Shown piece by piece: positions 12,893 to 59,488 of a DNA stretch of 64,000 nt. A model generated the notes under the pieces. It was not told where the DNA came from. It worked only from the letters and a program-made list of their open reading frames with translations, and did not search any database. The position numbers and the translations under genes are program-made. The stretch's first letter is position 1; each line of letters opens with the position of its first letter. The stretch is from Eledone cirrhosa (taxonomy: Eukaryota), in assembly GCA_964016885.1 (NCBI GenBank), contig OZ024754.1, positions 39,928,001 to 39,992,000 on the forward strand, written 5' to 3'.

Positions 12893-12953
12893 TATTTTAT
12901 TATACATATTTCAAGGGTACCAATATTTTGGTACGCTTTCGTCAGATAAAATA
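12893..12953 (-). ncRNA. Type-I hammerhead ribozyme
   Basis: TATTTTAT-CTGACGA-[AAGcGTACCAA aata TTGGTACcCTT]-GAAA-TATGTA-TA^ATAAAATA. Confidence 0.8.
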
Positions 12954-13072
12954 CAATATTTTGGTACGCTTTCGTCAGATAAAATACAATATTTGGTTTA
13001 AAGATTATCCACAATTAACTCATAACATTAATTTCATATGAAGATATGTCACTATCTTTAAACCAAATATTG

Positions 13073-13133
13073 TATTTTATCTGATGAAAGCGTACCAAAA
13101 TATTGGTACCCTTGAAATATGTATAATAAAATA
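13073..13133 (+). ncRNA. Type-I hammerhead ribozyme
   Basis: Same as 12893-12953 with a CTGATGA core; 8-bp stem I. Confidence 0.8.
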
Positions 13134-13301
13134 AATATGGTTTTATAAAGATATTTTCCATTTATTAATATTATTGATATTATATATATATAAATAATGA
13201 GCTAAATATCTCTCTGAGTACTAAGTACCCATACGGATATATAGGGTGTCTATAATATAATAGTTGTTCAATGGTACTAATTTGAGATACCAGAACTATA
13301 A

Positions 13302-13837
13302 AAATTGAGATGAGCAGAACAAACAAACATTAAACAATCCTTTAAATAAATTAAAAAATGATTTAAATATCTACCTGTTCATAATGCTATTACCAGCGGT
13401 TTCGCTTTACAAAAGATTAGAGATTCAGAGAATTTCTAACGGAAAAGTAAAGTTCATCAGATAGCTATTTCCACTCTATAGGACCAAGTCCCACAGTCTG
13501 CAAATATATTGCCAACTACCAGCTCGTATGAGTTATGGCCGTTAAAGTGACCCACACGTGAACTGGCCGCTAGTCCAAGCGGGAATATTACAGACGTGTT
13601 GATGGCTTTGCTGCTAAAAAAATAGCAGTAAGCAACAACAAATTTGTTTTCTCTACATAGATTGGAGAATATATAAAATGAGATAAATATCTCTCTGAGT
13701 ACTAAGTACCCATCCATAGTCTCTAATCTTTTGTAAATGGAAACCGCCGGTAATAGCATTATGAACAGGTAGATATTTAAATCATTTTTTAATTTATTTA
13801 AAGGATTGTTTAATGTTTGTTTGTTCTGCTCATCTCA

Positions 13838-13841
<4 letters not shown>
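13302..13841. mobile_element. Penelope-like insert with ~120-bp inverted arms
   Basis: 13302-13422 is reverse-complementary to 13720-13841; the right arm holds only the 3' half of the hammerhead (GAAACCGCCGGTAATAGC). Confidence 0.75.
13386..13465 (-). ncRNA. Type-I hammerhead ribozyme with extended stem II
   Basis: GCTAT-CTGATGA-a[CTTTAC...TTAGAaATTC tct GAATcTCTAA...GTAAAG]c-GAAA-CC gct GG-TA^ATAGC. Confidence 0.8.
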
Positions 13842-13873
<32 letters not shown>

Positions 13874-14990
13874 AAGTAGGCTGCTGTATTGGCAGTGAAA
13901 CTTAGATAATGAATACAGAGTCTGTAGTGACTGAAGCAGAACAAGTGGAGTATATAGTGGGCTTACATCTTATGCAGTCAACTGACCCCCCACCCCTTAC
14001 CATCTTATTAAAAAAACCTATATTTAAAAACTTTATATAAAAGTGCCTATGTATGTCGATGTTTTGGCGAGACATAATGTCAGGTTCCCTGGAGGTGGAG
14101 AAAACTCATGAAAAAAATAAATGATAGTGGTAGAGGGTTAGAGTTATCTCCCTTACATTAGGTGATATGGTTTCATATGGAACAGGATGTTAAGAGTTTT
14201 TAAAGCTTTTCTGAATTTAAAAAAAAAAATTTTTCTCACTGCATAGGACATGGGCCCACTGTATATTAGATGTGTAATGATGTTAAAACTTATGAGAGAA
14301 AGACTGCAGTGGTGGAAGTTGGATGAGAAAGTAAAGCTAATTACCAGCAGAATAAATTGATATGTTGGGTGGGATGAGGGAGACATCTACATTGAACTGG
14401 GTGGTATAAGGGTGGCATAGTGGCATGGTGGCACAGCTACCATTAAAGGTAAATGTAGATGTCGACCAAGGAAGACTCGGGAAGTTGTTGTTAAATCAAG
14501 CCTAAAAAGATTGTCTTCACAGATGAGATAATACAAGATAAAAGATGTAGAGAGATGATTTTTTTGCAAACCCTTCCAACCCAAACTTAACAGGGAGACT
14601 CAGATTTGATATTGATGATGGTGATGATGATGATGATGATGATTATCTACACCAATATGAAAACAAACAAAAAGAAAAATACCAAAACGTTAATAATAAT
14701 GAAATGAGTTGATTTCATTTGAAAAGTTCCGTTAGTTAAAAGGTGAATCGCTGTCGGCCCAATGCCAAGGGGATGGGGTGGGGGTGGGGGCATGGGGTGG
14801 TACTGCCCTCTTACCTTTCAATGGTGCACCCTCAGATTTAGAAAAAATTATGGTGATATGCTTATTTTAAAACTGTGTTTTAGAATTATTGTGAATTATT
14901 GTCTACCTAAATTGTTCTGAAACCCCACCCAGGCAGCAAAACCTGGCAACAGCCCTGAATTAATGATAGTTTATCCCACACATAACATAC

Positions 14991-15032
<42 letters not shown>

Positions 15033-18964: not shown

Positions 18965-19473
18965 ACATACACACACACACACGTATATATATATGTATAT
19001 ATATATACACACACAGACAAAATATACATATATTAAGTGTATGTGTATGTACACACACACACATATATATATGTATATATATACACACACACACACAGAC
19101 AAAATATACATATATTAAGTGTATGTGTATGTACACACACACACATATATATATGTATATATATACACACACACACACAGACAAAATATACATATATTAA
19201 GTGTATGTGTATGTACACACACACACACATATATATATATGTATATATATACACACACACACACACATACAAAATATACATATATTAAGTGTATGTGTAT
19301 GTACACACACACACACATATATATATATGTATATATATACACACACACACACAGACAAAATATACATATATTAAGTGTATGTGTATGTACACACACACAC
19401 ACATATATATATATGTATATATATACACACACACACACAGACAAAATATACATATATTAAGTGTATGTGTATG

Positions 19474-19495
<22 letters not shown>
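18965..19495. repeat. ~85-bp compound CA/TA tandem repeat, ~6 copies
   Basis: Recurring CAAAATATACATATATTAAGTGTATGTGTATG anchor. Confidence 0.9.
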
Positions 19496-19525
<30 letters not shown>

Positions 19526-19574
19526 ACTGAGAAATTGTACCTTCAATTCCCTTTATATATATCTGTCTATCTAT

Positions 19575-19604
<30 letters not shown>

Positions 19605-19608
<4 letters not shown>

Positions 19609-19797
19609 GTTATTCCGGGTTGAATCGGAGGTAACCACAGTAAGTAAGGTACTCAATACATAGCAGAGTATAAAAGTTTTAATATAGGTGAGATTCTACA
19701 GGACTAGAACTGTTTCATTCATTAGAAATCATCACGATTCCTGATGATTTCTAATGAATGAAACAGTTCTAGTCCTGTAGAATCTCACCTATATTAA

Positions 19798-19801
<4 letters not shown>
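19605..19801. mobile_element. Fold-back Penelope-like insert (family also at 36486-36662, 58480-58585, 58783-58868)
   Basis: 60-bp inverted arms 19675-19734 and 19742-19801; flanked by (TA)n on both sides. Confidence 0.8.
19736..19784 (+). ncRNA. Type-I hammerhead ribozyme
   Basis: GATTC-CTGATGA-t[TTC taat GAA]t-GAAA-CAG ttctagtc CTG-TA^GAATC. Confidence 0.75.
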
Positions 19802-19849
<48 letters not shown>

Positions 19850-19851
19850 GA

Positions 19852-19935
19852 GGTCTGACAAGCTTTTGATTCCAGAATCGGCCAGATCAATACAGATCAA
19901 ACCTTGAGCTGATCAGTGGTGAAACACGTGTCACC
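19852..19935 (+). ncRNA. Degenerate hammerhead (CTGACAA core, long stem II); 3' half also at 56061-56098 minus
   Basis: GGT-CTGACAA-[GCTTTTGAT...ATCAGTGGT]-GAAA-CACGTG-TC^ACC. Confidence 0.45.
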
Positions 19936-19978
19936 AACCAATAAATGTAATGAAGGAGTAACGAATCGTCCTTTTATT

Positions 19979-20049
<71 letters not shown>

Positions 20050-20153
20050 ATATATAGACAAATGTGTATGCATGTATATAAATTAGATACAAATAAATGG
20101 ACATTTATGGACAAAATACATTTAGGAAGTTACAGGCAGATTTTGTCAAAAGG

Positions 20154-20193
<40 letters not shown>

Positions 20194-20694
20194 CTCATGT
20201 GAGTGTATATAGCAGTGCATAGAGTGTCTAACACTTCTTTGCTAACTCCTTACAAGCTCACATAGATTTATACACACACACATATATATATATACTACAC
20301 ATATATACTTCTCAAATACACACACACACACACACACTAACAGAACTGATTCAAGCTCCCTTCCACCCCACCATCCACTATATTTTACCTGACAGGAGAT
20401 AACCCCCCCCCCCCGCCAAAAAAACAACAACAAAAAACAAACAAACAAACAATTCTCATTTGAAATGTCTGATGGAATATAAGAAAGAATGAAAAGGTAA
20501 ATGGGAGGTGGAGCAGAGCAGTTCTGGTGGTGCTCCAGTATGGCCACAGCCAAAACCAGAATGAATAGAAGCACTCCTCCTACACTATGAAATTAAAAAC
20601 ATGTTAGCCTTTTTTTTTTTTTTTCCTTTCTTTCTTTTTTTTTTTCCTTTCTTTCTCTCTCTGTCTCATCTCTAATATTTGACATGTCTTTAAA

Positions 20695-21186
20695 TTATTT
20701 CATTTTTATATGACCATTCATGCCTTGGTAGCGTGCTGAATCCATATATGGCCCCCAGTATAGATGATGAGTATAGAATATCAGGATTTTTTCTGTAAGG
20801 ATGCCACCAAAGAACCACAAAGGGGCATATTCAAGTGTCACTAAGCCCATAATGTCCCAGTCAAAATTATCATAATCCCAAGGGCAGGCATCAAAACATG
20901 TTAGTATATAACCGGTACTGAATTCCCACAAGTAAGTCCACAACATATAAATAAGTCCTCGGAACAGCAACGGTACTGTGTCCTGTAAGTGGTAATGAAT
21001 CTGTTCAACGACAAGGATGGCAACTCCGTAAATAAGCAAAGACCAGACACTCGTGTTTCCCGGGAACTTCACGTTCATATTGACGACAAACTCCCAGGCT
21101 GCTGTGAACATCACTTCAATAAAATAGCCATGGATTGCATAGATATAAAACCTCATAGGTAACGATAGTGCTATATGTTGATGCAT
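20695..21186 (-). CDS. TMEM229B: Transmembrane protein 229B-like, 163 aa (MHQHIALSLPMRFYIYAIHG...GHIKMK), CDS in one exon
   Basis: Motifs RFYIYAIHGYFIEVMFTAAWEF, FPGNTSVWSLLIYG, YLWEFSTG, CPWDY and GLVTLEYAPLWF are characteristic of TMEM229B. A polypyrimidine-AG acceptor (minus strand ttttaatttctttttcag, AG at 21238-21237) precedes the ATG at 21186, so the longer 21270 ORF start is intronic. Confidence 0.92.
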   Translation of the reverse strand: MHQHIALSLPMRFYIYAIHGYFIEVMFTAAWEFVVNMNVKFPGNTSVWSLLIYGVAILVVEQIHYHLQDTVPLLFRGLIYMLWTYLWEFSTGYILTCFDACPWDYDNFDWDIMGLVTLEYAPLWFFGGILTEKILIFYTHHLYWGPYMDSARYQGMNGHIKMK

Positions 21187-21422
21187 TATTGTATGCCAGT
21201 TATTGCGATGACGAGCGAAGAGACTCTCTGAAGAATCTGAAAAAGAAATTAAAAATGTATATAGACTCAATAAATATATATATATATATATGCAAAAGTT
21301 CTATTTAAAATTGTTGGGATACAACAAGTAAATATTTTTATAACTGATATAAAGCACTCGACAAGTTTTTGGAGTAGATATACGATATTAATAAATGGAA
21401 ACTATATTTATAAAACCATATT

Positions 21423-21487
21423 TATTTCATTATACATATTTCAGGGATACCACATTAAATTATGGTATGCCTTCATCAGACAAAATA
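21423..21487 (-). ncRNA. Type-I hammerhead, intronic and sense to TMEM229B
   Basis: TATTTTGT-CTGATGA-[AGGcATACCA taatttaatg TGGTATcCCT]-GAAA-TATGTA-TA^ATGAAATA; 34-bp inverted arms at 21476-21509 and 21585-21618. Confidence 0.8.
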
Positions 21488-22390
21488 CAATATATAACAG
21501 TTTTACAAATAAGCTTTGACGTACCCTATTAAAATGCAACCATTGTTTTTGGAAGTCATCCGGATAGTGAATTGTTTATATAACTTTGTAAAACTGTTAT
21601 ATATTGTATTTTGTCTGAGTACTTGTTATGAGAGAGAGAGAGAGAGAGAGAGAGGGGGAGAGAGAGAGAGTGAGAGAGAGAGTACTTTATTTACTGACCT
21701 TGAAAGGATGATGAAATGCAAAGTTGAACATTGTCAGGTGCAGAGTTAACACTGCATACACAATGAGGGACACACGCAAAGAATTGACCCTAGTAGTGGA
21801 CTGGTATTTTATTTATTATTCATTGACCTCAAAAGGATGAAAAGCAAAGTTGATTTTGGTGAGAGTTGAACTCAAAAGTTCAGAGGAGTGAGAAGAAGAC
21901 ATTCTCCATCATTCTAACAAACTCTGCCAATTCACTGTCTATGACCAGAACATTTAATGATATCGGCTTTCCACAGCTTTGATGGAATAGACAGCTCTGC
22001 TCAGACATGTTTATGACCAAGAGAGGTATAGTAGAAACATCTACCATAGCAACAAACTGTCACTCACTACACTATTGTTCAACTATAATATATTCTCCTT
22101 AACCCTTTCATTTCCATATTCCTAATGAAATACACTGCCTATCACTTAATGTTGAAAATAACAATAAATTTTGAGGAATTTAATAAAATAACTAAGTTTT
22201 TCATTAGTAAGCTGATATTTAGTAAGTACCAATATCTCTAAAATATCTAGTAAGTAAGAATTTAATAAGATAACTAAGTTTTTGATTAGCAAGCTGATAT
22301 TTAGTAAGTACCAATATCTCTAAAATATCTAGTAAGTAAGAATTTAATAAGATAACTAAGTTTTTGATTAGCAAGCTGATATTTAGTAAG

Positions 22391-22562
22391 TACCATATTT
22401 CCCGGCGCCGAAGATGCTTTGTTCTTGAGGACGCACCCTAATTTTGACAACTAAAAATTTGACAAAAAATAATAAACAACCTTCGGCCTCCAAGACGCAT
22501 GGTAGATTTTTGAGACTTATTTTAGGAAAAAAGTAGTGTCTTCGACGCTGGGAAATATGGTA
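22391..22562. mobile_element. Tc1/mariner-superfamily MITE
   Basis: TA + TIR CCATATTTCCCGGCGCCGAAGA ... TCTTCGACGCTGGGAAATATGG + TA; sits in an 82-bp tandem repeat (22177-22650). Confidence 0.85.
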
Positions 22563-23378
22563 CTTATATTTCTAAAATATTTAGTAAGTAAGAATTTAAT
22601 AAAATAACTAAGTTTTTTATTAGTAAGCTGATGTTTAGTAAGTATTAATATTTCTAAAATTAAATTATGAGGGGAAGATTTTAATATAAAGATAAACATT
22701 TGAAAATGAACTTTGTATCATAAATCTAGAGCAGTTTCATTCAGTTTCATTGGTATTTTCAATAAATTGACGTGATTCAACCAAATAATTAGAAATAAAC
22801 AGCATTCTGTATTTCACTTGGAAATATAGGTCAGGGCTTATACCACCCACCTCTCTACCATCATCACATAACATTCCCCCCCCCCTCTGCCATCATTACA
22901 TGTCTCCCCCACCTCTGTCATCATCATATAACATTCCCATCATCATACAGTTGAGCACACACATCACCCTACCATCACAGTACATTGACCCCTGATTCTT
23001 ACTAGTCAACACATCTCAGCTGCCCCCACACCCGCCATTTGCATCATGACACTATTAAACACCCCCACCTTCTCATTAAATAGCCACAAAACTGGCAGAG
23101 TTGTTAGAGTGCAGGATGGACTATCTGTTCTTATTTGTTTCAGCTCGCCGAACTCAGAGTTCAAATCCCACCAGTGAAAGGTAAAGCTGACCCCATGACA
23201 AAGTTAAAGATGGCAAATTTGAAATCAGAAGATAAAGAGACCCTAGCTAAATATTATAAAACATTTAGTTTGGCTATACTCATTCAGCCATTCCACCACC
23301 CTGCAAAATATGTCACTCCACTAGGTTAGCAGATATGAAAACATCAAATCAGTTTTGCAGAGGAAGAAGTAAATATAT

Positions 23379-23835
23379 GAGCCTAGAAACATGAATGGCA
23401 AAGTTGAGCCTAGAGATATGGATGGTAAAGTTGAGTCTAGGGATATAAACGGCAAAGTTGAGCCTAGAGATATGAATGGTAAAGTTGAGTCTAGAGATAT
23501 AAACGGCAAAGTTGAGCCTAGAGACATGGATGGCAAAGTTGAGCCTAGAGACATGGAGAGCAAAGTTGAGCCTAGAGACATGGAGAGCAAAGTTGAGCCT
23601 AGAGACATGGATGGTAAAGTTGAACCTAGAGACATGGAGAGCAAAGTTGAGCCTAGAAATATGAACGGCAAAGTTGAGCCTAGAGATATGAATGGTAAAG
23701 TTGAGCCTAGAGATATGAACGGCAAAGTTGAGCCTAGAGATATGCACGGCAAAGTTGAACCTTGAGATATGAACGGCAAAGTTGAGCCTAGAGACATGAA
23801 CGGCAAAGTTGAGCCAAAAGATATGAACGGCAAAA
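23379..23835. repeat. 27-bp minisatellite, ~16 copies
   Basis: Unit AAAGTTGAGCCTAGAGAYATGRAYGGC. Confidence 0.93.
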
Positions 23836-24819
23836 TTGGAAAACATGAAAATGATGATCATTATATATGTGTGTATAATTTCCAAAAAGATTTAACTCAT
23901 AACAGAAAATGTAAAAAAAAAAAAAGATTAATTAAATAAAAAGAGAGGCTTGTTATTTTAAATATCTATAAGAAATTAAGAGAAAAGGTGGAGGTTGTTA
24001 ATTCAAATATCTACGAGTTAAAATACATACAAAAACATCTTTACTCTACATCTCTCAGATCCTGGATAGTGTGTAAACTATTATACTAAAGAGCCACAAG
24101 CCACCATTTCCATTTTTTTAGAAGATTTTAATCCTGCAGCTAGAACTGTAAACAAAACAGTTGACTTCAGGAGTATTGGGAACATTTGTGCCCTAGATGA
24201 GATAACTCGTAACAGTTCATAACTTCAAAGCTAGATGGGGTTACTAGTTTATTGATGTGATGTTTGTCAATCATTCAGACATGTGTTCTTAATAAATGTC
24301 TGTTTAAAAAAAATAGTCATTTTACTGTCCAGTGATTCTTTCCTGAGACATTCTAACCACATGTCTGTAAGTATCAGAGCTGTGATCGCTCAATTCGAAG
24401 AAGTAGAGATTAAATATATGTTTATTAAAAATATTGAATATGTCTTCTGTATACATACATATACACACATGCACACACACACAAGTACACATACACAAAC
24501 AGGCTTCCACACTGTTTTGTCTACCAAAATTCACTCATAAAACACTGGCCAGCCTGGTCCGATGCATTTGATATATTTCTATGTCGCTATATACTCATCA
24601 TCATCATCGTTTAATGTCCATTTTCCACGCTAGCATGGGTTAGATGGGTTTGTCCCATTTAGAGGCAAGTTGTGTCCGGGGACCTTGTCTTGCTCATATA
24701 GGACAGCTTCTCGCTGGTTTTCTACGACTGGATGCCCTACCTCAATCGGTAAATTTCTATATCAAACTCCCGACCTTACAATCATGATCTCTACAACCAA
24801 ACCACAAAGCTATGTACCG

Positions 24820-25950
24820 TCACTATTGTTAGTACTGCCACTAGTCACTATGTTAGTACCGCCACTAGTCACTATGTTAGTATCGCCACTAGTCTCTATG
24901 TTAGTACCGACACTAGTCACTATTGTTAGTACCACCACTAGTCTCTATTGTTAGTACCACCACTAGTCACTATGTTAGTACTGCCACTAATCACTATGTT
25001 AGTACTGCCACTAGTCTCTATTGTTAGTACCACCACTAGTCACTATTGTTAGTACTGCCACTAGTCTCTATTGTTAGTACCACCACTAGTCACTATGTTA
25101 GTACTGCCACTAGTCACTATGTTAGTACTGCCACTAGTCACTATGTTAGTACCGCCACTAGTCACTATGTTAGTATCGCCACTAGTCTCTATGTTAGTAC
25201 CGACACTAGTCACTATTGTTAGTACCACCACTAGTCTCTATTGTTAGTACCACCACTAGTCACTATGTTAGTACTGCCACTAGTCACTATGTTAGTACTG
25301 CCACTAGTCTCTATTGTTAGTACCACCACTAGTCACTATTGTTAGTACTGCCACTAATCACTATGTTAGTACCGCCACTAGTCACTATGTTAGTACCACC
25401 ACTAGTCACTATGTTAGTACCGCCACTAATCACTATGTTAGTACTGACACTAGTCTCTATGTTAGTACTGCCACTAGTCACTATGTTAGTACTGACACTA
25501 GTCTCTATGTTAGTACCACCACTAGTCTCTATGTTAGTACTGCCACTAGTCACTATGTTAGTACTGACACTAGTCTCTATGTTAGTACCACCACTAGTCT
25601 CTATGTTAGTACTGCCACTAGTCACTATGTTAGTACTGACACTAGTCTCTATGTTAGTACCGCCACTAGTCTCTATGTTAGTACTGCCACTAGTCACTAT
25701 GTTAGTACTGACACTAGTCTCTATGTTAGTACTGACACTAGTCTCTATGTTAGTACTGACACTAGTCTCTATGTTAGTACCACCACTAGTCTCTATGTTA
25801 GTACTGCCACTAGTCACTATGTTAGTACTGACACTAGTCTCTATGTTAGTACCACCACTAGTCTCTATGTTAGTACTGCCACTAGTCACTATGTTAGTAC
25901 TGACACTAGTCTCTATGTTAGTACCGCCACTAGTCAGTATGTTAGTACCG
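24820..25950. repeat. 24-bp minisatellite, ~46 copies
   Basis: Unit GTTAGTACYRMCACTAGTCWCTAT. Confidence 0.95.
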
Positions 25951-26074
25951 AGAGAGAACCTACATATGATGTTTTACAGCTCTAGATTGTTGTTGTTGTT
26001 GTTAATCTCTTATCTGCCGCCATTATCTCCTTTTTTATCTATTTGGCAATATATATTTATTGGGATTGTTTTAT

Positions 26075-26084
26075 ACCACCTCCA

Positions 26085-26115
<31 letters not shown>

Positions 26116-26865
26116 AACTACTACTACCACTACTACTACTACCACCTCCACTACCACTACTACTACTACTACTACTACCACTACCACTACTACTACTACC
26201 ACAACTACTACTACTACCACCTCCACTACTACTACCACTACTACTACTACTACCACCTCCACTACCACTACTACTACTACCACTACCACTACTACCACTA
26301 CTACTACTACTACCACTACTACAACTACTACTACCACCTCCACTACTACTACCACTACTACTACTACCACCTCCACTACTACTACCACCTCCACTACTAC
26401 TACCACTACTACCACCTCCACTACTACCACTACTACTACTACCACCTCCACTACTACTACCACTACTACCACCTCCACTACTACTACCACTACTACTACT
26501 ACCACTACTACTACTACCACCTCCACTACTACTACCACTACTACTTCTACCACCTCCACTACTACTACCACTACTACTTCTACCACCTCCACTACTACTA
26601 CCACTACTACTTCTACCACCTCCACTACTACTACCACCTCCACCACTAATATTACCACCACTACTGCCATAACCAGCATCAGTACAATTATTACCACCAC
26701 CACCACTTACTATCACCACCACCAACACTTACTATCACCACTATCACCACCGCCACCGCCACTTACTATCACCACCACCACCACCACTTACTATCACCAC
26801 CACCACCACCACCACCACCACCACCACTTACTATCACCACCACCACTTACTATCACCACCACCAC
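26075..26865. repeat. (CTA)/(CCA) trinucleotide field
   Basis: Direct reading. Confidence 0.95.
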
Positions 26866-26930
26866 CCGTATGTGAAAGGGTTGAGGGTGAGTCACAGATA
26901 TGGAGAGTGTGTGTATGTAATATAAATATG

Positions 26931-26968
<38 letters not shown>

Positions 26969-28131
26969 AGTGTATGTATATGTCTGTGTATGTGCAAGAA
27001 AGTAGCCAGTCTATTAAGTTTAAACTGTACTAAACATATCATTAGCGAAGTCCTCATTCGGCCACAGTGGCCAACATAAAAATCATTATTATCCTTATTA
27101 TCTGTTGTTGTTTTATAGTAATTCTATAACAGTTATTATTATAGTCTATTTCTGGCTATACTGATTGGTAATTTAATAATTGTCAGATACCGACAACTGC
27201 AGAATACAGGAAATAACTAATTAGTTAGTAGCTTATACTAAAAACACTAATACATGACCCTATTTCTGAACCCTCTAGTTATCAACCTGACCACAACTGG
27301 CTCTGGTTCTATGAAATAAAACCACACATTTTAACCCTTTAGTTACCAACTCGGCCAAAACCAGCTTTGGTTCTATGAAATAAAATTATACATTTTAACC
27401 CTTTAGTTACCAACCCACCCAAAACCAGGTCTGCTTCTATGAAATAAAACCACCCATTCTAAAGGTTTCCAATTTAAATAAAAAATCTTCCAACATAAAA
27501 TTTTATATAAGTATTATTACATTAAGTTACTATCTTAGTAAGGAAATAATTAATAATTTTATTAAAACCAGCTCTGGTTCTATGAAATATAACTACCCAG
27601 TTTAAAAGTCTCCATCATAATTTTATATAAGAACCTTACATTAAGTTACTATCTTAGTAATGAAATAATAATTTTGTAAAACCAGCTCTGGTTCTATGAA
27701 ATAAAACCACCAATTTTAAAGGTTTTCAATTTAAATTAAAATTTTCCAACATAATTTTATATAAAAACCTTACATTAAGTTATCTTAGTTATGAAATAAT
27801 TAATAAATTTAGTAAATTCTTTTAAATTCTTCGTTAATTAATTAAAATAGAGCGTATTATTTTAGAAATGCAATCATGAAAGTTTTAACCAACAGTATAA
27901 GTACCATTCATTTGTTTTTTTGTCAAACTTTAACTTCTAACAACTTGTACCACATAGAACGACATTGGCAAGACATTCTTGAAAAGTACCAAACATCACA
28001 TTAAATATTGATGTCTTTACTTTAATACAGCAACATTTCACAATCTGTCCACTAATACAGACACTGTAGACATTTAAATTAATAAACCTATTTTGAACAA
28101 AACTTGTTTATGTTATGTTTCAAAGATGAAC

Positions 28132-28556
28132 TTAACCCTTTAGCATTTAAACCGGCCATATCCGATCAGAATTCTCTCATTTCTTTCTGTTCAAACCAGC
28201 TGTAATTGGCTGCTTATACTGACGGTAAGGTATTGTTCTCAAAATAAATAATATCAAAATCTCATAGCTTTGATATTATGTGGGATAATTATGTGAGGTA
28301 AAGCCTTTACTGTGAAAATACAATAGTATATATACAGAATAATTGTTTCTACTTTTTGGCACAAGGCCAGCAATTACCCAGTGCATTACTGGTACTTTAT
28401 TTTATCGACCCCGTAAGGATGAAAGGCAAAGTTAACCTCGGCGGGATTTGAACTCAGAATGGCAAGGGCTGTAACTCTGTGCGTCAAAGCATGGCGTCCA
28501 ACCCTCTACCGATACTGCCAATCCACTATAGAATAATGTAAATGCTAAAGGGTTAA
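28132..28556. mobile_element. piggyBac-type MITE with nested SINE A; other copies 31949-32148 and 46197-46452
   Basis: TTAA-CCCTTTAGCATTTA...TAAATGCTAAAGGG-TTAA; the nested SINE is flanked by an AGAATAAT duplication. Confidence 0.88.
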
Positions 28557-28856
28557 TAATGAGAAAATTAGTTATATTACAAAATCTCTCTAAAGTCTTG
28601 ATTATTTTCAAAATTATTTCAACACAGGTATTGTCATCATTTCATTTTACATCCGCTGTTTCTCTTCTTGCAAGGGTGTCATTCTTTAGAAATATGGTAA
28701 CAAAAGGGTTCAAGCACTAGGGTACAATTTTAGGGAGTTTTGGCTGCTATTTTTAACAAAGAACAGCTATATAAAGGGCTTCTTTTGTTGACATATTGAT
28801 AGCTGTATAGACAGTAAATGTGGCAAACACTAGTGCAGAGTATGTAAAACTAATTG

Positions 28857-29833
28857 GCAATGGTGGTGGTGGTAGTGGTGGTGGTGATAGTAATGTTGTT
28901 ATTGTTGGTGGTGGCAATGGTGGTAGAGATGGTAGTGATGGTGGTGTTATTGTTGAAGGTGGTGTTGTTGTTGGTGGTGATAGAGTTGTTGTTGATGGTG
29001 GTGGTGTTAGAGGTGGTGGTGGTGATAGAGTTGTTGTTGTTGTTGATGGTGGTGGTGGTGGTGGTGGTGATAGAGTTGTTGATGGTGGTGGTGGTGTTAG
29101 AGGTGATAGAGTTGTTGTTGTTGTTGATGGTGGTGGTGTTAGGGGTGGTGGTGGTGATAGAGGTATTGTTGTTGTTGATGGTGGTGGTGTTGGTGATAGA
29201 GTTGTTGATGGTGGTGGTGGTGTTAGAGGTGGTGGTGGTGGTGATAGAGGTATTGTTGTTGTTGGTGGTGGTGGTGGTGGTGGTGATAGAGTTGTTGATG
29301 GTGGTGGTGGTGTTAGAGGTGATAGAGTTGTTGTTGTTGTTGATGGTGGTGGTGTTAGGGGTGGTGGTGGTGATAGAGGTATTGTTGTTGTTGATGGTGG
29401 TGGTGTTGGTGATAGAGTTGTTGATGGTGGTGGTGGTGTTAGAGGTGGTGGTGGTGGTGATAGAGGTATTGTTGTTGTTGGTGGTGGTGGTGTTAGAGGT
29501 GGTGATAGAGGTATTGTTGTTGTTGATGGTGGTGGTGGTGATAGAGTTGTTGTTGTTGATGGTGGTGGTGTTAGGGGTGGTGGTGGTGATAGAGGTATTG
29601 TTGTTGTTGATGGTGGTGGTGTTGGTGATAGAGTTGTTGATGGTGGTGGTGGTGTTAGAGGTGGTGGTGGTGATAGAGGTATTGTTGTTGTTGTTGATGG
29701 TGGTGGTGGTGTTAGAGGTGGTGGTGGTGATAGAGTTGTTGTTGTTGTTGGTGGTGGTGGTGGTGTTAGAGGTGGTGGTGGTGGTGATAGAGGTATTTTT
29801 GTTGTTGTTGATGGTGGTGGTGGTGTTGTTATT
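28857..29833. repeat. (GGT)/(GTT) cryptic trinucleotide minisatellite
   Basis: GGT and GTT runs punctuated by GATAGAG and GTTAGA. Confidence 0.93.
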
Positions 29834-30689
29834 GATGGACCTGCCTTCATTGATCTCAATGACGAACATTCAATTAGTTGAACAAATAAACAAACAAAAA
29901 AATATATTACTCTGGTTCATTAATCATATTTGTATATTAACAAAATTATGAACAACCTGTTTTTCAAGACATTCAATCATTAATATGAATTTTCCAAGGC
30001 CAGAGATAATACTTGTAAAAACTCATGGCACCCTATGTACTATGTATGGTGTGTCTATGCACAGAAGCAGAAGAGACAAAATAAGTAGACCTCTGTCAGC
30101 CTTGACGAGTTGTTAGATCGTCAGATAGAATGTTTTGCAGTGTTTGGTATTCGTCTTGGCTCTCTGTGCAGTCTGGGTTCAAATCCTGCCACGGTCAACT
30201 GAGACAGAGAGAGGGGACGGTAGATATAAGAGCTAAACTGCCCTCTTCAAATTTGATAATGTAATCTTTAATAAACAAAACAGTAATGGCGATTTACACT
30301 TTTATTTTTCATATTTCAGGGGTTGGATGCCATTTTCAAAAGGAATATAAAGTCTAGTGCTGCAGTTCACTCATCTGGCAAAAATGAGCTGTATTTGTAA
30401 TTTGAAGGATTAGCCTTATCACATCCTGCATAATGCTGAATCTACCTGAGAACTATATTAAGGATAGGTGTCTGTGGAATTGCTCAGTTGATCGTATCAA
30501 CTGGAACACTCATTGTAAAATGTGCGTGTGTGGGTGTGTGTGTGTGTGTATGTGTGTCAGTGTGTGGGAGAGAGTGTGTGTGTTTGTGTATGTGTGTCAG
30601 TGTGGGAGAGAGTGAGTGTGTGTGTGTGTATGTGTGCCAGTGTGGGAGAGAGTGAGTGTGTGTATGTGTGTGTCAGTGTGTGTGTGTTT

Positions 30690-30952
30690 ATGTAATCCAA
30701 GATGGTGTGCAGGAGAGAAGATTGAGTTGATACAGATATTGTAACGAGAATGGATGATAATCGCTGGGTGAAGAAGTGGTAGGAAATCCCAGTGGAATGA
30801 AGCTGCAGTGAAGGTAGACCAAAGAAGACCTGGGCAGCAGTTGTGAAAGCTGACCTCAAATCGCTGAGACTCACAGAAGAGATGACAGAAGAACACAGCG
30901 AGTGGAAAGATGCAAGCGTGAAAAAACTGGATATAAAAACGATGATGATGAT
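30690..30952 (+). mobile_element. Degenerate RTE 3' fragment
   Basis: GRPKKTWAAVVKADLKSLRLTEEMT plus (GAT)n tail. Similar decayed copies at ~14240-14643 (+) and ~31455-31745 (-). Confidence 0.75.
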
Positions 30953-32586
30953 GTCTTGTAATTTAGTGCTTCGACAAAATGAAATCAATATAAGTATCAT
31001 ACTTGTAAAAAATAAAACAAAGAATGTGATTGATATGATTGACTAAATCCCCTTTAAGCCAGTGCCCCAGCATAGCCACAGTCTAATGAGTAAAACTAGT
31101 AAAAGAATAAAAGATTGCAGTTATGTATATATGTGTAATATGAGAGAGAAATGCACTATTTCACACCACTGTACTAACTGCCCTCTAAGTGGTACCCTAT
31201 GTATGTTATACCAATTAAATTCTAATGGGTTATCTGGTTATCTGTTTGTTTGTCAGTCGATAATCTAGATTCATTACTTCAGTTGGCTTGAAAGGTTAAA
31301 AACTACATAAATTAAAGAAAATAGAGCAGATAGATAACAAAATCAGTTTATCATGCTTGAGAATTTTGATCAACATAATTTTATACAATAGTTTTTTTTA
31401 ATCCAGATCAACTTTAACCCTTTCGTAACCATTTCTCTAATGAAATAAACTCGTCATTATCATTTTATATCTGATCTTCCATTCTAGCATGGGTTGAATT
31501 GATTCTTTTCAGCACAGCCTCTTTCCACTTGCAGTGCTCTTTTATCATCTCCTCTGTGAGGTTCAGCATTCTGAGATCAGTTCTAACAACCTCAGCTCAG
31601 ACCTTTCTCAGTTTTTCTTCTTCTGCAGCCTTCTTTCACTAGCATCACTTAGCAATTCTTTGCCCAGTAACAATCATCCATATGCATCACATGTTCATAC
31701 CACTGCAGTCATCTCCTTTGCACTCTACATCTGATTCCTCTCCTCTCAGTTCATGCACACCAATTAATTAATAAAGAATTTGGAAAGATTTTCTAAAATT
31801 ATTAATTATTTCATTATTAAGATGGTATTTGTAACATAACAAAAAGTTCTATTGGGAGATTTGAATTTAAATAAGAATACTTAAATATGAATGACTGTCT
31901 ATTTTGACTCTTAACATGCTGCCAGTCTGAGAGATAGAATAATTTACTTTAACCCTTTAGCATTTACATTACTCTATATTTACTATTGTATTTTCAGAGT
32001 AAAGGATTTATCTCACATAATATTGAATCTATGAGATTTTGATGTTATTTATTTTGAGAACAGTACCTTAATGTAGGTATGAGTTACCAGTTACAGCAGG
32101 TTTGAGAATTCTGGCCGGATACAGCTGGTTTAAATGCTAAAGGGTTAATAGCCTCTCTTAAGATTTGATTTTTTTTTTTATGCTTCATTTTGGATGGAGG
32201 GATGACTCAAGAAGATTTCTCTTAATAAGATTCCCCACATCCTCCTCTACTTTAGTTATTGTTGTAGTAGTTGTTATTGTCATACCACTAATACTATAGT
32301 TGTTGTCAGTATAACATAGACCCCTCTTGTTGAACTGACCAATCAAAACTTCACTAGATGGGAGGGAAGACAGCTATCAAATGATGTTGCTGCTGATGAT
32401 GATGAAGTGTGTGTGCGTTTATGAACAGATTAACAACTTACATTTTCATATAAACAATAAATACTTTTTTTTACAATCAGAGTCATAACACTTATTACCT
32501 GTAAAGACGACTATATAGAAACAGAAGAGTACTTAAGTTTAAGTTATGGTTCTCTCACTCTCAAGTAGAAACATTAACAATTGCCA

Positions 32587-32625
<39 letters not shown>

Positions 32626-33400
32626 ATATATCTAATAAATATGGAGGCACAATCGAAAGGTTGTGAGTTCAATTCTCAGACCGGGTGATGTATTGTTTCT
32701 TTGAGCAAGACACTTTATTTCACATTGCTCCAGTTTACTCAGCTGTAGAAATGAGATGATAGGGACTGGGGTCCCTATCATTCCACTGCAAAATGGTCGT
32801 GGAGGCGCCATGGTAAAAAAGCATCCAGCCCACACTGCAAAGTGGTCGTGGAGGTGCCACGGTAAAAAAGCACCCAGCACTCACTGTAAATGAGGTTGGT
32901 GTTAGGAAGGGCATCCAGCTGTAGAAATCAAGCCAGAATCAGTTCCCATCCCACCCTTGCAAGCAGGGAAAAGCGGACGTAAATTGATGATGATTATATA
33001 TATGAAAAGATTCAGGACCCTGATGGCTGAGCTCTGGAGGTTTCAATAGCTAGATTCGAACTAGTTACCCACTCTACTACCCCGAGTATTGAGTACTTTA
33101 GTGGGTTATGGTCTACCTGGTTTTTAGCACACCCGATCTGATATATATATCGTGTAGGTGTCACAACAAAAAAACACCCAGTCCTCGCTGTAATGTAGTT
33201 GTGTAGGTAACATGCTAAAAAGCTGCCAGTCCACACTGTAAATATGGTTGCTGTTAGGAAGGGCGTCCAACCGTAGAAAACCTGCCAGATAGTCCTATAT
33301 AAGCGAGACACGGTAACCCGACCAATCTTGCCTCAAGTGGGACAACTTCCGTCTAACCCATGCTAGCGTGGATGATGATGATGATATATATATATTTATT

Positions 33401-33538
33401 TATTAAAATGACAGATTAAAGTTTAAGTAAAGAATTGTTGCTTTCACCCTTAACGGGATCTTCTGAAAATCTTCAGAAGATCCCATTAAGGATGAAAGCA
33501 GCGATTCTTTGCTTAAACTTTAATCTGTTATTTTAATA
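33401..33538. mobile_element. Fold-back insert with degenerate hammerhead-like core
   Basis: 67-bp inverted arms with a 4-nt spacer; CAGAAGA-TCCCATTAAGGAT-GAAA resembles 43933-43969 but the core is broken. Confidence 0.65.
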
Positions 33539-33622
33539 TTTGCTCTAGGGTTCTTATATATTTGATATATATTTATCCTTATCGAGCCCTCTTTGGATTT
33601 TAGTCTTCAATTTTATTATTAT

Positions 33623-33684
<62 letters not shown>

Positions 33685-33778
33685 CTCTGATTTATCTAAA
33701 TTATGGAGCACTCTGCCGCTCATATCGAATTTTGTTTATCGTGAACTCGTGCGCCGATTTTTCGATACTCGATTATTC

Positions 33779-33840
<62 letters not shown>

Positions 33841-33841
<1 letters not shown>

Positions 33842-34034
33842 AAAATGTATGACCCCCCCAACAGCAGAACTCAAGCCGTTTCGATGGCTATTTCTGGAGT
33901 CCAGAAATAGCCATCGAAACGGCTTGAGCTCTGCCATCGGGGTCATACATTTTCTTATTACCCACTCTACTACCCTAAGTATTGAGAGTACTCTGGTGCG
34001 TTATGGTCCATCTGATTCCTTACCACGACTCCTC

Positions 34035-34036
<2 letters not shown>
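33841..34036. mobile_element. Fold-back insert (arms 33841-33954) with a tail shared with 33065-33120
   Basis: Centre CTGGA-g-TCCAG at 33899; shared TTACCCACTCTACTACCC..AGTATTGAG tail; flanked by (TA)n. Confidence 0.7.
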
Positions 34037-34077
<41 letters not shown>

Positions 34078-34257
34078 GAAGAAGAAGCTTCTATTTTTTT
34101 CAAATCCATTTTATTTCCCATTAAGCTGCACTTCAGAGGCGATGGATAGCTTAAGAGTTTCTTGTTCATCGCGTCACTCGTCAGATGAGAGATTCTATTT
34201 TGGAAGATCATGTTTTGTATGGTATACTTCCATGTAGTATATAGTTTTTTAGAGTTC

Positions 34258-36492: not shown

Positions 36493-36662
36493 TGAGATTC
36501 TACAGGACTAGAACTGTTTCATTCTTTAGATTCCTGATGATTTCTAAAGAATGAAACAGTTCTAGCCCTGTAGAATCTCATCTATATTAAAACTTTTATA
36601 CTCTGCTATGTATTGAGTACCTTACTTACTGTGGTTACCTCCGATTCAACTTGGAATAACGT
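36486..36662. mobile_element. Fold-back Penelope-like insert in (TA)n
   Basis: Arms 36486-36530 and 36543-36587; homologous to 19605-19801. Confidence 0.8.
36529..36577 (+). ncRNA. Type-I hammerhead ribozyme
   Basis: GATTC-CTGATGA-t[TTC taaa GAA]t-GAAA-CAG ttctagcc CTG-TA^GAATC. Confidence 0.75.
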
Positions 36663-37232: not shown

Positions 37233-38505
37233 CATCATCATCATCAACGTTTAACGTCCGTGTTCCACGCTTGCATGGGTTTGGACGGGGGTAGTCCCAC
37301 TTGAGGCAAGAGTGATTGTCTTGCTCGCATAGGACTGTCTGGCAGGTTTTCTACAGTTGGATGCCCTTCCTAACACCAACCACATTTACAGTGTGGGTCT
37401 GGGAGGTTTTTACCGTGTTGCCTACACGGCCACATTACAGCGCGGACTGTGTGTTTTTTTGTCGTGACACCTACACGATCTCATTTGTTTCGGCCTGGAT
37501 GGCGCGGCACCAACATAACTTTACATAGAACGGGGTGGTGTGGATGGGGTGGGGGTGGTGGCGGGACGGGGTGTATTTTGTTAGAGATGCCTACTGGCAA
37601 GGCGGGTCTTCTCTGTTACTGAGTACCGCCAAAGGTCTCGGTCCAGTGACATTGTCTTGGAGAGGTGTAAGTGTGTGAGGTCGGAGTTTATCAGCTCGTC
37701 CCAGGTTTTTCTAGGTCTGCCTATTCCGTGGCTACCGTCTATCTTTATTGCCCTGCACTTTGTTATACAGCTATCGACTTTCATGCGCATCACGTGTCCA
37801 TACCAACGTAGCCTTCTCTCGAGTAAACAACATCTGATCCCTCTTATCTGTAATTTTTTCCTTAGTTCGTTTATGCTTTGCCGTTCACGTATATTACTGT
37901 TACACATCCAGCGGAGCATGCAAGCTTCGTTCCTCTCTAGTCTGCGTATATCCTCTGCACACAATGCCCAGGTCTCACTGCCATGCAACATTGCTGTTCG
38001 TATGCAGGCATCGTACAACCTGCCTTTCATTTTTAGGGAGAACCCTTTAGCAGCTAATAGTGGTATAAGCTCTCTGAACTTTTTCCAACCAGTTCTGACT
38101 CTAGCTACAGTACTTTCAGAGCACCCTCCCCCACTGCTGATTTTATCGCCCAGGTAACGGAAGCTGTCCACTATTTCTATAGAACCCTCTGCGCAATTGA
38201 AAGAGCTAGTATTTTGTGGGCACTTGCTGCTACTTATTGCACCAGTACACCGGCCACATGTAAAATCTATGTTCTTAGTTAGCTTACCTGTGATCCCACT
38301 ACATCTTTTATGAACCCATACTTTGCATTTAGGACATAAAATGGAGTTTCTACCTACGCCTTTCCTACACACCGAGCACGACCATTTCCCAGAAGGGACC
38401 GCCGCCTTGTTTTCTTTCCTACAAACTAGAACTTTGGTCTTAGCCAGGTTAATTTTAAGTCCTTTTGACTCTAGGCCGTGCTTCCATGTTTGGAATTTCT
38501 TCTCT
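37233..38505 (-). mobile_element. 5'-truncated RTE-clade LINE: C-terminal ORF part (37581-38505), 3' UTR and (TGA)n tail
   Basis: Uninterrupted ORF with GLKINLAKTK, FRYLG, RVRTGWKKF, MLHGSETW, RRLRWYGHVMR and GRPRKTW, plus an inserted Cys/His (PHD-like) cluster. Confidence 0.92.
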
Positions 38506-38649
38506 GATATATTTCTGCTCATATATGAAGAAATTAACAGGTTACATTATTATATATAAAATATTTGACTGATCTAAACAGTGTTTATAGAAGCAGAGTC
38601 AGATACTTATTCACAAATATTTTACAAACATAAAATAGAAATACAATAC

Positions 38650-43394: not shown

Positions 43395-43465
43395 TATTTT
43401 ATTATGCGCATTTCAAAAACAAATATCATCATGGGATGATATTTGCGTTCTCATCAGATAAAATA
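43395..43465 (-). ncRNA. Type-I hammerhead ribozyme
   Basis: TATTTTAT-CTGATGA-GAAc[GCAAATATCATC ccat GATGATATTTGT]TTTT-GAAA-TGCGCA-TA^ATAAAATA. Confidence 0.8.
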
Positions 43466-43539: not shown

Positions 43540-43610
43540 TATTTTATCTGATGAGAACGCAAATATCATCCCATGATGATATTTGTTTCTGAAATGTGCA
43601 TAATAAAATA
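43540..43610 (+). ncRNA. Type-I hammerhead ribozyme
   Basis: Mirror of 43395-43465; stem III ATGTGCAT. Confidence 0.8.
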
Positions 43611-55330: not shown

Positions 55331-55655
55331 CACCACAACCATTATTGCTGAGAAAAACGCACCAGTATCACTACTAACACTTTAACCAACACCACCACCA
55401 TTAACAACAATAATAACACCACCAACCATACCACCACTACCAACAGCAGCAGCAACAACACCTAAAAAGACAGCATGGTGTGTTAGCCAAGTTTGTCAGG
55501 GATCAATGTCATATATTGAGAACTGGAGTAGACTGGAAGTATTAAGGAAGATTCTGGAGAGGAGAAATTTATAGAAATGTCTAATACAACCAGCTCAACA
55601 GTGATAACTACTCTCTCTTCTCTAACACACACACACACACACATACATATGTATA

Positions 55656-55693
55656 TGAGTTGAAGAATCCTTCAGGTGAAACACGTGTTCTCA
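55656..55693 (+). ncRNA. Hammerhead with TTGAAGA (C3U) core, probably inactive
   Basis: TGAG-TTGAAGA-[ATC cttca GGT]-GAAA-CACGTG-TT^CTCA; related to 43933-43969. Confidence 0.55.
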
Positions 55694-57123: not shown

Positions 57124-57170
<47 letters not shown>

Positions 57171-57344
57171 TATATATATACACACACACATATATATATA
57201 TACACACACACACATATATATACACTATATGTCTCACAAACCTCTCTTTCCACGTTGCTTACCTCAACAATCTTAAATGCTGGAGTTATTCCAAACGGTT
57301 GTCGGAGATAACTCCACCACTCACATAATCAGATGTGAGTGAGA

Positions 57345-57730
57345 GTGGGTGGAGAGAGAAGGGGGGGGGGGGTGAGAGGAACATAGAGAGAAGGAGAGAG
57401 AGAGGGGGGAGGGACAGATGGAGAGGAACACAGAGAAAAGGAGAGAGAGACAAATGGAGAGGAATACAAAGGAGAGAGAGGGAGAGAGAGACAAATGGAG
57501 AGGAACACAAAGGAAAGAGAGAGGGTGGAGAGACAGATGGAGAGGAACACAGAGAGAAGGAGAGAAAGAGACAGATGGAGAGGAACACAGAGAGAAGGAG
57601 AGAGAGAGGGGGAGAGAGAGAGGGTGGAGACAGATGGAGAGGAACACAGAGAAGAAGGAGAGAGGGAGAGAGAGAGAGGGTGGAGACAGATGGAGAGGAA
57701 CACAGAGAAGAAGGAGAGAGAAAGAGAGAA
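57345..57730. repeat. Purine-rich GA minisatellite
   Basis: Recurring GACAGATGGAGAGGAACACA. Confidence 0.85.
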
Positions 57731-58366
57731 TGTGAAAAGTAGACAGAGCAAAGAAAAAGAAAAGAAAAACACTGCTTAAACCATCCAAGAGTAAATAATG
57801 CTATTTCCATTAATCAAAAGATCGTTTCCACAGATTTATTTAAATAAAAAATTGGAACAAACCTAAAGAAAATATTAGAAATACACAATACATACATATA
57901 TATATCATCATTATCATTTCATTTTACGTCCGCTTTTCCCTGCTTGCAAGGCTGGGACGGGAACTGATTCTGGCTTGATTTCTACAGCTGGATGCCCTTC
58001 CTAACACCAACCTCATTTACAGTGAGTGCTGGGTGCTTTTTTTGCCGGGGCACCTCCACGACCACTTTGCAGTGGAATGATAGGACCCCAGTCCCTAAAG
58101 TCCCTATCATCTCATTTCTACGGCTGAGTAAACTGGAGCAATGTGAAATAAAGTGTCTTGCTCAAGGAAACAACACATCACCCGGTCTGAGAATTGAACA
58201 CACAACCTATATATATATATATATATATATAAATATTTTATATATATATATAATATATATATATATTATATATATATATATATAATATATATATAATATA
58301 TATATATATATAATATATATAATATATATATATAATATATATATATATTATATATATATTATATAT

Positions 58367-58398
<32 letters not shown>

Positions 58399-58493
58399 AA
58401 ATATTTATATATATATATATATACAAAATATATATTTATATATACATATATATATATATTTATATATATATAATATATATTTAATATAGAAAT

Positions 58494-58545
58494 GGTTTCT
58501 ACAGGACTAGAACTGTTTCAATCGAAAGACATCATCAGGAAAGCC
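58494..58545 (-). ncRNA. Type-I hammerhead ribozyme
   Basis: GGcTTTC-CTGATGA-t[GTC tttc GAT]t-GAAA-CAG ttctagtc CTG-TA^GAAACC. Confidence 0.75.
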
Positions 58546-58794
58546 TTTACTTACTATGGTTACCCCGATTGAACCTGGGATACACACAGATATATATATA
58601 TATATATATATATATATGGGGAGGGTCATATTTGTGTAATATTGCCAGAATTAATAACAGAACACACTCCTCACTGTTTGGTTGGTTTTCGCTTCTGTGT
58701 CCTTTATATCGGTAATCTAATTTATTCGGTCCTCAATGTCTTTTATATCGCAAAACTATATATATATATATATATATATATTTAATATACAAAT

Positions 58795-58846
58795 GGTTTC
58801 TACAAGACTAGAACTGTTTCATTCAAAGGAAATCATCAGGAAAGCC
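58795..58846 (-). ncRNA. Type-I hammerhead ribozyme
   Basis: GGcTTTC-CTGATGA-t[TTC cttt GAA]t-GAAA-CAG ttctagtc TTG-TA^GAAACC. Confidence 0.7.
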
Positions 58847-59418
58847 CTTCCCGATTGAACCCGGTATACACACACATATATATATATATATATATGTAGG
58901 AGGTGAGTTTTATTGTAGTACAATAAAGCAATGCAGATATCGGATAAGAAGCACTCTACAGTTTGTAGGACTGGAGTATACATAATTTCATCTAACTCAT
59001 TATTCTCAATACATATTAACTCTTTCTTTTTCTTCGCACATATCAAACCCCTCAATATACAAACCTTAACTTTACATTATTTTTCTCTTCGTTAATTTTC
59101 AAATTCTTTTAATTTATACATTATCTTCCAACGGTTTTCAACCTCTCTATGTAAAACAATATATCTTTCTCAGTTATAAAAGCTATCTCTCTCTCTCTCT
59201 ATCACCCATCTCTCCTCCTATCTCATCCTTCCTCATTATACTCCTCCCTCTCCACCTTCACTCTCATCTCCTCCTTTTTTTCATCCTTTCCACCCCCCCC
59301 CCCTCTAAATAAAATATTTTTCCCAATATCACACATCAATCTAAAACTACTTCTCATATGTTGATTTAAAACTGAACTATCCACACAAGTGTATTTTAAC
59401 CTTCATATCATGTCCTCC

Positions 59419-59488
59419 TGTTTTATCTGATGAAACACAAATATTATTGCATGATGATGTTTGTTTTTGAAATGCGCATAATAAAATA
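59419..59488 (+). ncRNA. Type-I hammerhead ribozyme
   Basis: TGTTTTAT-CTGATGA-AAc[ACAAATATTATT gcat GATGATGTTTGT]TTTT-GAAA-TGCGCA-TA^ATAAAATA. Confidence 0.75.

Follow-up and report, generated by a model that had tools for sequence, protein, structure and literature searches.

Type I hammerhead motifs in the terminal repeats of three Penelope-like element families of Eledone cirrhosa, with stems probably kept paired by selection on RNA

Covarying hammerhead motifs were described in Penelope-like elements (PLEs) in 2014, and the pattern of G-U pairs and covariation is already reported for this element class. The closest described systems are the PLE minimal hammerhead (Cervera 2014), the Hydra clade of PLEs carrying a C-terminal endonuclease (C-terminal EN+; Craig et al. 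2021, PMC8557442), the Poseidon PLE of Anolis studied in vitro (Frangieh et al. 2024, PMC11167929), and the non-LTR retrozymes (PMC7229834; bioRxiv 10.64898/2026.07.22.740005), and PMC4209133, PMC11167929 and PMC8557442 still treat the role of PLE hammerheads as an open question. The motifs compared with these systems here come from a 64,000-nt stretch of Eledone cirrhosa DNA (assembly GCA_964016885.1, contig OZ024754.1, positions 39,928,001 to 39,992,000 of the forward strand), referred to as the window. They form three families, A1, A2 and B, which are carried in the terminal repeats (pLTRs) of three PLE families. It is quite probable that their stems have been kept paired by selection on RNA in successive active parents, stepwise through G-U pairs, while inserted copies decayed roughly neutrally. 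As posed, this finding confirms a known pattern.

A search with a type I hammerhead descriptor returned 13 matches in the window, whereas 19 of 20 shuffled controls gave none and the other gave one; 1.0 Mb sampled at evenly spaced positions of the 3.0-Gb, microsatellite-rich genome gave 76 matches against 2, 2 and 0 in three shuffles, with a tandem array supplying 15 of the 76 listed. Repeat finding over the whole window was dominated by microsatellites. The CUGANGA and GAAA core with an NUH triplet, in type I order, was confirmed for the ten window motifs compared, which are, judged by sequence and pairing, real type I hammerhead motifs: A1 (12893, 13073, 21423), A2 (43395, 43540, 59419), and B (19736, 36529, 58494, 58795). 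Exact anchors of 23-31 nt, with inverted pairs counted twice, occur genome-wide 35,399 times for A1, 18,823 for A2 and 31,535 for B, and reversed controls gave 0. As in the PLE minimal hammerhead (Cervera 2014), the motifs of all three families lie in pLTRs beside an open reading frame (ORF) for reverse transcriptase (RT) and GIY-YIG endonuclease and have a palindromic helix III region. Unlike those, they lack G10.1-C11.1, a typical trait there that stands outside the descriptor, and show no clear extra base after A9; stem I of A1 and A2 is 8 bp long and rich in A-U, and their stem II contains a conserved C-pyrimidine mismatch; in B, stem II has 3 bp and stem III has 4 bp; and there are 19,000-35,000 anchors per family here compared with 2,000-9,000 per genome there.

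The link to PLEs comes from genomic loci; no fragment of a PLE ORF was found within the window. A B hammerhead stands directly before a 712-aa ORF with RT and GIY-YIG domains, carrying YRDD and TYIG, at 7 of 12 loci with an intact ORF, and 8 of the 12 have a further, direct one 2.2-3.7 kb past the ORF; an arrangement with the B hammerhead at the 5' end only, suggested by 0/20 loci with one within 1.5 kb past the ORF, was rejected when 10-kb loci showed the downstream copy. For A2 the hammerhead lies 0.8-1.4 kb past the GIY-YIG end at 16/20 loci, with homology continuous across loci, and for A1 a related ORF is enclosed by inverted ends of 955 nt at one locus (L102). Direct pLTRs, an inverted 5'-truncated copy and an optional tail, as known for PLEs, were observed, and so was insertion into (TA)n targets. 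The B and A2 proteins are 32% identical. Pfam GIY-YIG matches are below the cutoff (E 0.0013-0.016), the Pfam RT model was not detected in the 12 translations scanned, and a sequence search of the PDB gave nothing meaningful; relatives carry HTH_animal, RT and GIY-YIG domains (PF26215, PF00078, PF01541).

On its motifs, this set of families is assigned to the Hydra clade: the PLE proteins carry YRDD, DKT, CxCX5C, CxxC and CxH, the set given for that clade in PMC8557442, where the CxCX5C linker and the CxxC and CxH around the endonuclease end accompany a C-terminal GIY-YIG, (TA)n targets and hammerheads. B has DKT, the linker, CxxC and CxH, A2 has all four across copies, and A1 has the linker, CxxC and CxH. 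The CCHH motif, whose absence marks the clade, was assessed by eye. The families differ from the clade as described there in B having RWR instead of RWK (the N-terminus was read in B only) and in the 4.5-6.0 kb between B hammerheads, compared with under 3 kb typically; the long span is due to a microsatellite-rich 3' region of 2.3-2.9 kb (70-74% microsatellite), seen at L218:3647-5952 and in four other B elements. This region is carried as a part of the element and starts with a GTGAGT donor-like motif. One cephalopod family, Hydra-1_Obim, is listed in that source and is set beside the present families by the listing, not by sequence. The non-LTR retrozymes share type I hammerheads and a proposed PLE origin; they form tandem arrays of 150-450 bp, whereas A1, A2 and B copies are dispersed, solo or inverted, and linked to coding PLEs rather than being tandem non-coding units. 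Elsewhere in the genome, a tandem array of about 420-bp units at L172:279-9567, at least 15 of which carry a type I hammerhead, resembles a non-LTR retrozyme.

Evidence for selection on pairing comes from stem II of A1. Copies were picked by the 3' flank and a near-intact core, not by pairing, giving 112 events (core intact in 99), of which 109 were kept after three with a deleted stem II were dropped; nine truncated contexts were also left aside and, for A2, eight contexts of other length and one misregistered row. Stem II pairs 2, 5, 6 and 9 each have two Watson-Crick states among the 109 copies, and rank 4, 7, 1 and 3, respectively, among 1485 column pairs. In a tree-aware test built as an approximation of R-scape, pair 6 is significant in all six runs (E 0.0004-0.03 with the proposed set). 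When the same columns were re-paired at random, with tree and rates kept, stem II gave p 5e-5, 0/20000 without bulged lineages, and 9e-4 without query-biased copies. Moreover, in an unfitted MAFFT alignment of 92 of the 109 copies, 93.8% of cells are paired compared with 90.6% in shuffles (0/500), a control that ignores relatedness, and slid registers reach at most 54%. That the apparent covariation reflects merely the shared ancestry of a few subfamilies fits the few independent events per pair, the single pair significant alone, and flank column pairs that score as high as stem pairs if flanks are included. Nevertheless, the re-pairing test, in which tree and column rates are preserved, yields p of at most 9e-4 in three subsets, and the G-U over A-C contrast and the behaviour of N7, described below, are independent of paired correlation, so shared ancestry alone is a very improbable explanation.

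Stems differ between subfamilies mostly by G-U wobble steps, and likely selection kept the fold in active parents. With a pattern blind at the sites counted there are 12,492 matches, of which the first 100 were counted by hand (inverted pairs among them not being independent): pair 2 is A-U in 51, G-C in 31, G-U in 18 and A-C in none, and pair 5 is G-U in 10 and A-C in none. Across the three families, states shared by at least four copies comprise 15 G-U against 3 A-C (p 0.004), while states seen once or twice are 17 G-U and 19 A-C, a contrast with the common states at Fisher p 0.011, and the shared variable pairs of A2 all change from Watson-Crick to G-U (7/7). In the core, N7 has four states in the 109 A1 copies (57/34/10/8), whereas each of the other six core positions differs in at most 3/109. 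Private changes run at 0.9% in the core, a rate partly fixed by the selection pattern, and 1.3% both in stems and in flank, so that constraint acted in the parents and not in the copies.

An excess of G-U could also arise without selection, if A-to-I editing of double-stranded stems in the RNA intermediate were fixed by reverse transcription. Editing of this kind reads as A-to-G, and most of the 15 common G-U states do involve A/G differences. However, C/U wobbles occur too (A2 pairs 13 and 16, A1 pairs 5 and 9, B stem III), editing does not produce the second steps, U to C and G to A, private changes in A1 number 3 A-to-G against 4 U-to-C, and a fixed core is left unexplained, making editing highly improbable as the source of the pattern. 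Paired changes might likewise be made at the DNA level, by template switching during hairpin repair in quasi-palindromes, with no RNA selection involved. Stem II is a strong hairpin, the elements readily form fold-back inversions, and about two single internal branches carry changes on both sides of pair 6, all of which such repair would allow; by parsimony, the two sides of pairs 2 and 5 change on separate branches. Repair would also be expected to yield perfect pairs in one step, to treat both strands equally and to erase mismatches, but G-U lineages are common and A-C lineages few, two families still have the C-pyrimidine mismatch, and N7 is the one position of the single-stranded core that is not fixed. 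Hairpin repair is thus largely refuted and is extremely improbable.

The window copies themselves illustrate these steps, although two copies alone could not demonstrate selection. The A1 copy at 13073..13133 (forward strand; fold z -3.47, AUA site) is the short inverted arm of a pair whose long arm is the hammerhead at 12893..12953 (reverse strand); it has an 8-bp stem I, a stem II of 3 bp, a C-C mismatch and 6 bp, and a self-complementary loop III. A 33-nt internal duplication in the long arm gives a second core at 12978, and the A1 3' flank, with approximate bounds 12740..12892 (reverse strand), ends near (TA)n. This flank is homologous to that of A2, with a score of 86 against a maximum of 55 in 500 shuffles. 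In comparison with 13073, the A1 copy at 21423..21487 (reverse strand) belongs to another subfamily, with a G-C stem II pair 2 and an A-U pair 5; the changes described in the earlier note, AAG/CTT to AGG/CCT and GTACCA/TGGTAC to ATACCA/TGGTAT with the C-C mismatch kept, are exact, and two stem I G-U wobbles can be added to them.

For A2, the long arm at 43395..43465 (reverse strand) has a stem II of 3 bp, a C-U mismatch and 12 bp, with a perfectly palindromic loop III, and the inverted short arm at 43540..43610 (forward strand) has two private changes. The copy at 59419..59488 (forward strand) is of a second subfamily, with wobble variants, and, compared with the rest of that subfamily, lost one A at the stem II base after insertion (35 vs 36 nt); 5' of it, 59104..59418 (forward strand) is an A2 3' untranslated region with 75% identity to the region after the GIY-YIG ORF at locus L093. 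The earlier note had both 43540 and 59419 keeping the stem I and AUA site with an entirely different stem II, as a replacement within hammerhead families. The first part holds for 43540, which has TATTTTAT/ATAAAATA and AUA, while 59419 reads TGTTTTAT, with a G-U wobble. The second does not stand: at the base, A2 retains three pairs, followed at position 4 by a C-pyrimidine mismatch (C-U in 85/85 A2 copies, C-C in 103/109 A1 copies), with only the distal hairpin replaced, and A2 is a sister PLE family of A1, so the difference lies between families. A third A-type family (loci L071, L089, L130, L029, L225 and L292), with GGA/UCY basal stem II pairs, shares the C-C mismatch and stem I with A1 and shows three double changes against it.

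In B, a minimal hammerhead with a 3-bp stem II, a 4-bp stem III and a GUA site lies at 19736..19784 (forward strand), as the short arm in a fold-back pair, with the long arm at about 19608-19735 (reverse strand); that at 36529..36577 (forward strand) starts from the predicted +1 (36528) and is followed by a tail to about 36665 and then (TA)n. The copies at 58494..58545 and 58795..58846 (both reverse strand) are short copies of the GGCTTTC/GAAACC subfamily ending at +1, the latter with an extra G before it. The stem I difference once given as GATTC/GAATC in the first two and TTTC/GAAA in the last two is present, but it belongs to an insertion series rather than a pair swap: AGATTC/GAATCT, AGCTTC/GAAGCT, GGCTTC/GAAGCC, GGCTTTC/GAAGCC and GGCTTTC/GAAACC, so that TTTC/GAAA arises from one inserted base and a U-G to U-A change. 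The true double changes, A-U to C-G and A-U to G-C, had both been missed. The stem II loop varies as freely as described, with 20 sequences in 157 copies. Four tests on genome-wide copies support selection acting on the RNA structure of the source elements, at the level of the whole structure: re-pairing, the excess of G-U over A-C, a free N7 beside a fixed core, and the roughly neutral decay of inserted copies. The covariation check that had been proposed passes for the whole structure and is weak for single pairs: pairs 2 and 5 of stem II, named beforehand, fail individually, while pair 6, which was not named, is the one that passes.

Several observations weigh against selection for a paired hammerhead fold. 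In the tree-aware runs, only 1 of 20 A1 pairs is significant throughout; E for pair 2 is 0.009 in one run and 0.07-0.12 in the other five, that for pair 5 is 0.11-0.48, and pair 6 depends partly on the alignment of one bulge (E 0.03 without it) and, among the 100 hand-counted matches, is C-A in 4 and U-G in none. A2 is without any double change and B stem II is nearly invariant. Some A1 mismatches are common, as seen for pair 1 (A-C, 6 copies), pair 8 (G-A, C-A or A-A, 21), pair 5 (A-C, 6, at a CpG site), and pair 10 (U-U, 5). G10.1-C11.1 is absent in all three families, that pair being A-U in 94/109 A1 copies, G-U or A-U in 85/85 A2 copies and U-U in 151/157 B copies, so A1, A2 and B are variants of the PLE minimal hammerhead motif; an extra unpaired base between A9 and 10.1 is possible as an alternative register in the six A1 copies with A-C at pair 1 and was not seen otherwise. 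Rfam hammerhead models at gathering thresholds give no match in the window, B monomers fold no better than shuffles (z 0.06 to 1.27), 21423 (z -1.66) and 59419 (z -1.15) fold weakly, and a domain-swapped dimer is not the predicted minimum for two A1 sequences.

For A2 (43395), on the other hand, the domain-swapped dimer is the predicted minimum-energy dimer. Loop III is self-complementary, with at most wobbles, in 104/109 A1 and 76/84 A2 copies, and its centre alternates among UG, UA and CG with self-complementarity kept, as a dimer would need; in B, loop III contains a CTAG palindrome. From sequence and predicted pairing, we infer that the RNA folds as a hammerhead, that two copies may pair through loop III, and that cleavage or the binding of a protein is of importance to the element. 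The fold could instead be selected as a protein-binding or promoter-proximal RNA element that no longer cleaves. Such a role agrees with the missing G10.1-C11.1, with the scarcity of arms whose 5' end falls no more than 3 nt from the cleavage site (0/23 B, 1/28 A2 and 2/52 A1 arms, chosen by a downstream anchor), and with hammerhead mutants of the Anolis PLE that had no effect on insertion in vitro (PMC11167929). Against it, N7 drifts but every catalytic core position and the cleavage triplet have been retained, as expected of catalysis, and the same paper has the Anolis hammerhead cleaving once its own protein is added. A purely non-cleaving element is therefore unlikely.

The 5' ends of copies bear on the copying mechanism. 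Among 76 B arms chosen regardless of the 5' region, 44 end at most 7 nt before the core and 8 inside it, only 4 end between 9 and 40 nt, and 20 extend further. In eleven arms the end coincides with the first base of stem I, and in 10 of the 11 a G precedes it where long copies have C (about nine events, in three of which the G possibly comes from the inverted arm). A TATA box of the TATAAATA type lies 29-33 nt before this first base in 18 distinct long copies, which come from four subfamilies with differing spacers. In the GGCTTTC subfamily the G was counted at 18/25 loci, in a query-biased set without a long reference, and no copy with an upstream pLTR was found at loci L249-L277 of that query-biased set; this subfamily may exist mostly as short copies. 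A2 has a cliff 69 nt before the core, with 25/93 arms ending at 68-71 and 1 at 72-83, and an extra G is unclear there (5/16 arms). An extra G at such a junction is known as a cap mark from work on LINEs (long interspersed nuclear elements) and retroviruses. The sharp 5' stop of the short copies suggests, from sequence, the copying of a capped, uncleaved RNA. Contigs from four runs of unknown type lay mostly on the short segment from +1 to the tail, but contigs carry no information on starts or levels and were left out of the argument. The B boundary was also considered as a 3' splice site, as in Drosophila Penelope; this is disfavoured because copies keep the AG and the TATA box sits 29-33 nt upstream, although no systematic search for exon-joined copies was made.

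A mechanism can be proposed in which reverse transcription would prime at (TA)n targets, inside a sense RNA that is uncleaved and probably capped, the complementary DNA (cDNA) would run off the RNA 5' end and add a base opposite the cap, and the run-off cDNA would often fold back to give head-to-head pairs; most solo hammerheads would then likely be short, internally primed cDNAs. Cleavage would not be required before copying, because almost all inserted copies continue past the cleavage site, and the most likely use of the hammerhead would be the occasional trimming of long read-through or tandem transcripts, as a dimer or probably with the assistance of protein. That the genome records PLE copying in this manner, from capped and uncleaved sense RNA through run-off to fold-back, is held tentatively, at somewhat less than even probability. 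Internal priming on uncleaved RNA agrees with the in vitro work on the Anolis PLE (PMC11167929), which reports uncleaved RNA as the main template, A-T-rich targets, and two alternative 3' ends (a tail), comparable to the two 3' ends found in B. In that element, however, the hammerhead overlaps the start of the ORF, whereas here it lies in the 5' untranslated part, and the accessible portion of the paper describes no fixed 5' run-off or extra G in genomic copies. The run-off and fold-back proposed here also differ from the antisense template proposed earlier (PMC3846280). In the literature searched, mostly outside subscription papers and supplements, neither a formal covariation test on PLE hammerheads nor a cap-like G at PLE 5' junctions was found.

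Other features of the window lie outside A1, A2 and B. A further hammerhead family with a CCACTGG/CCGCTGG loop III has cores at 553 (reverse) and 642 (forward), forming an inverted pair at 490-700, and the core at 13460 (reverse) is a relative of it with a long stem II; relatives also lie at loci L116 and L130. Short canonical-looking cores with a 4-bp stem II of the GGAC/GUCC type lie at 11772 (forward) and 51896 (reverse). A single-exon ORF at 20698-21207 (reverse) matches Pfam PF06541, presumably resembling TMEM229B, and the hammerhead at 21423 is about 200 nt upstream on the same strand. A 321-aa open frame at 37581-38546 (reverse) is one that we take to be the C-terminal part of an RTE-type LINE. 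Elsewhere in the genome (L368-L427), the stretch 60-130 nt upstream of the hammerhead, where many short hairpins and fold-back junctions are seen, is strongly divergent between A1 subfamilies.

Exact anchor matches number about 86,000 over the three families; among these, G-U intermediates are preserved as whole amplified lineages, and the A1, A2 and B copies amount to a natural mutational scan in which minimal hammerheads come with an internal neutral control. The fixed core indicates that the hammerheads matter to the element, while the few copies that start at the cleavage site indicate that cleavage does not precede copying. A 5' run-off site with a TATA box and an extra G offers a direct test of the template used by PLEs. 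If the proposed copying mechanism is true, tens of thousands of solo hammerheads would be strong-stop-like by-products, and the head-to-head inversions would be explained without an antisense template. Moreover, the predicted first transcribed base of B is where its hammerhead starts; cleavage would then take off the cap and could in that case be an off-switch separating translation from copying.

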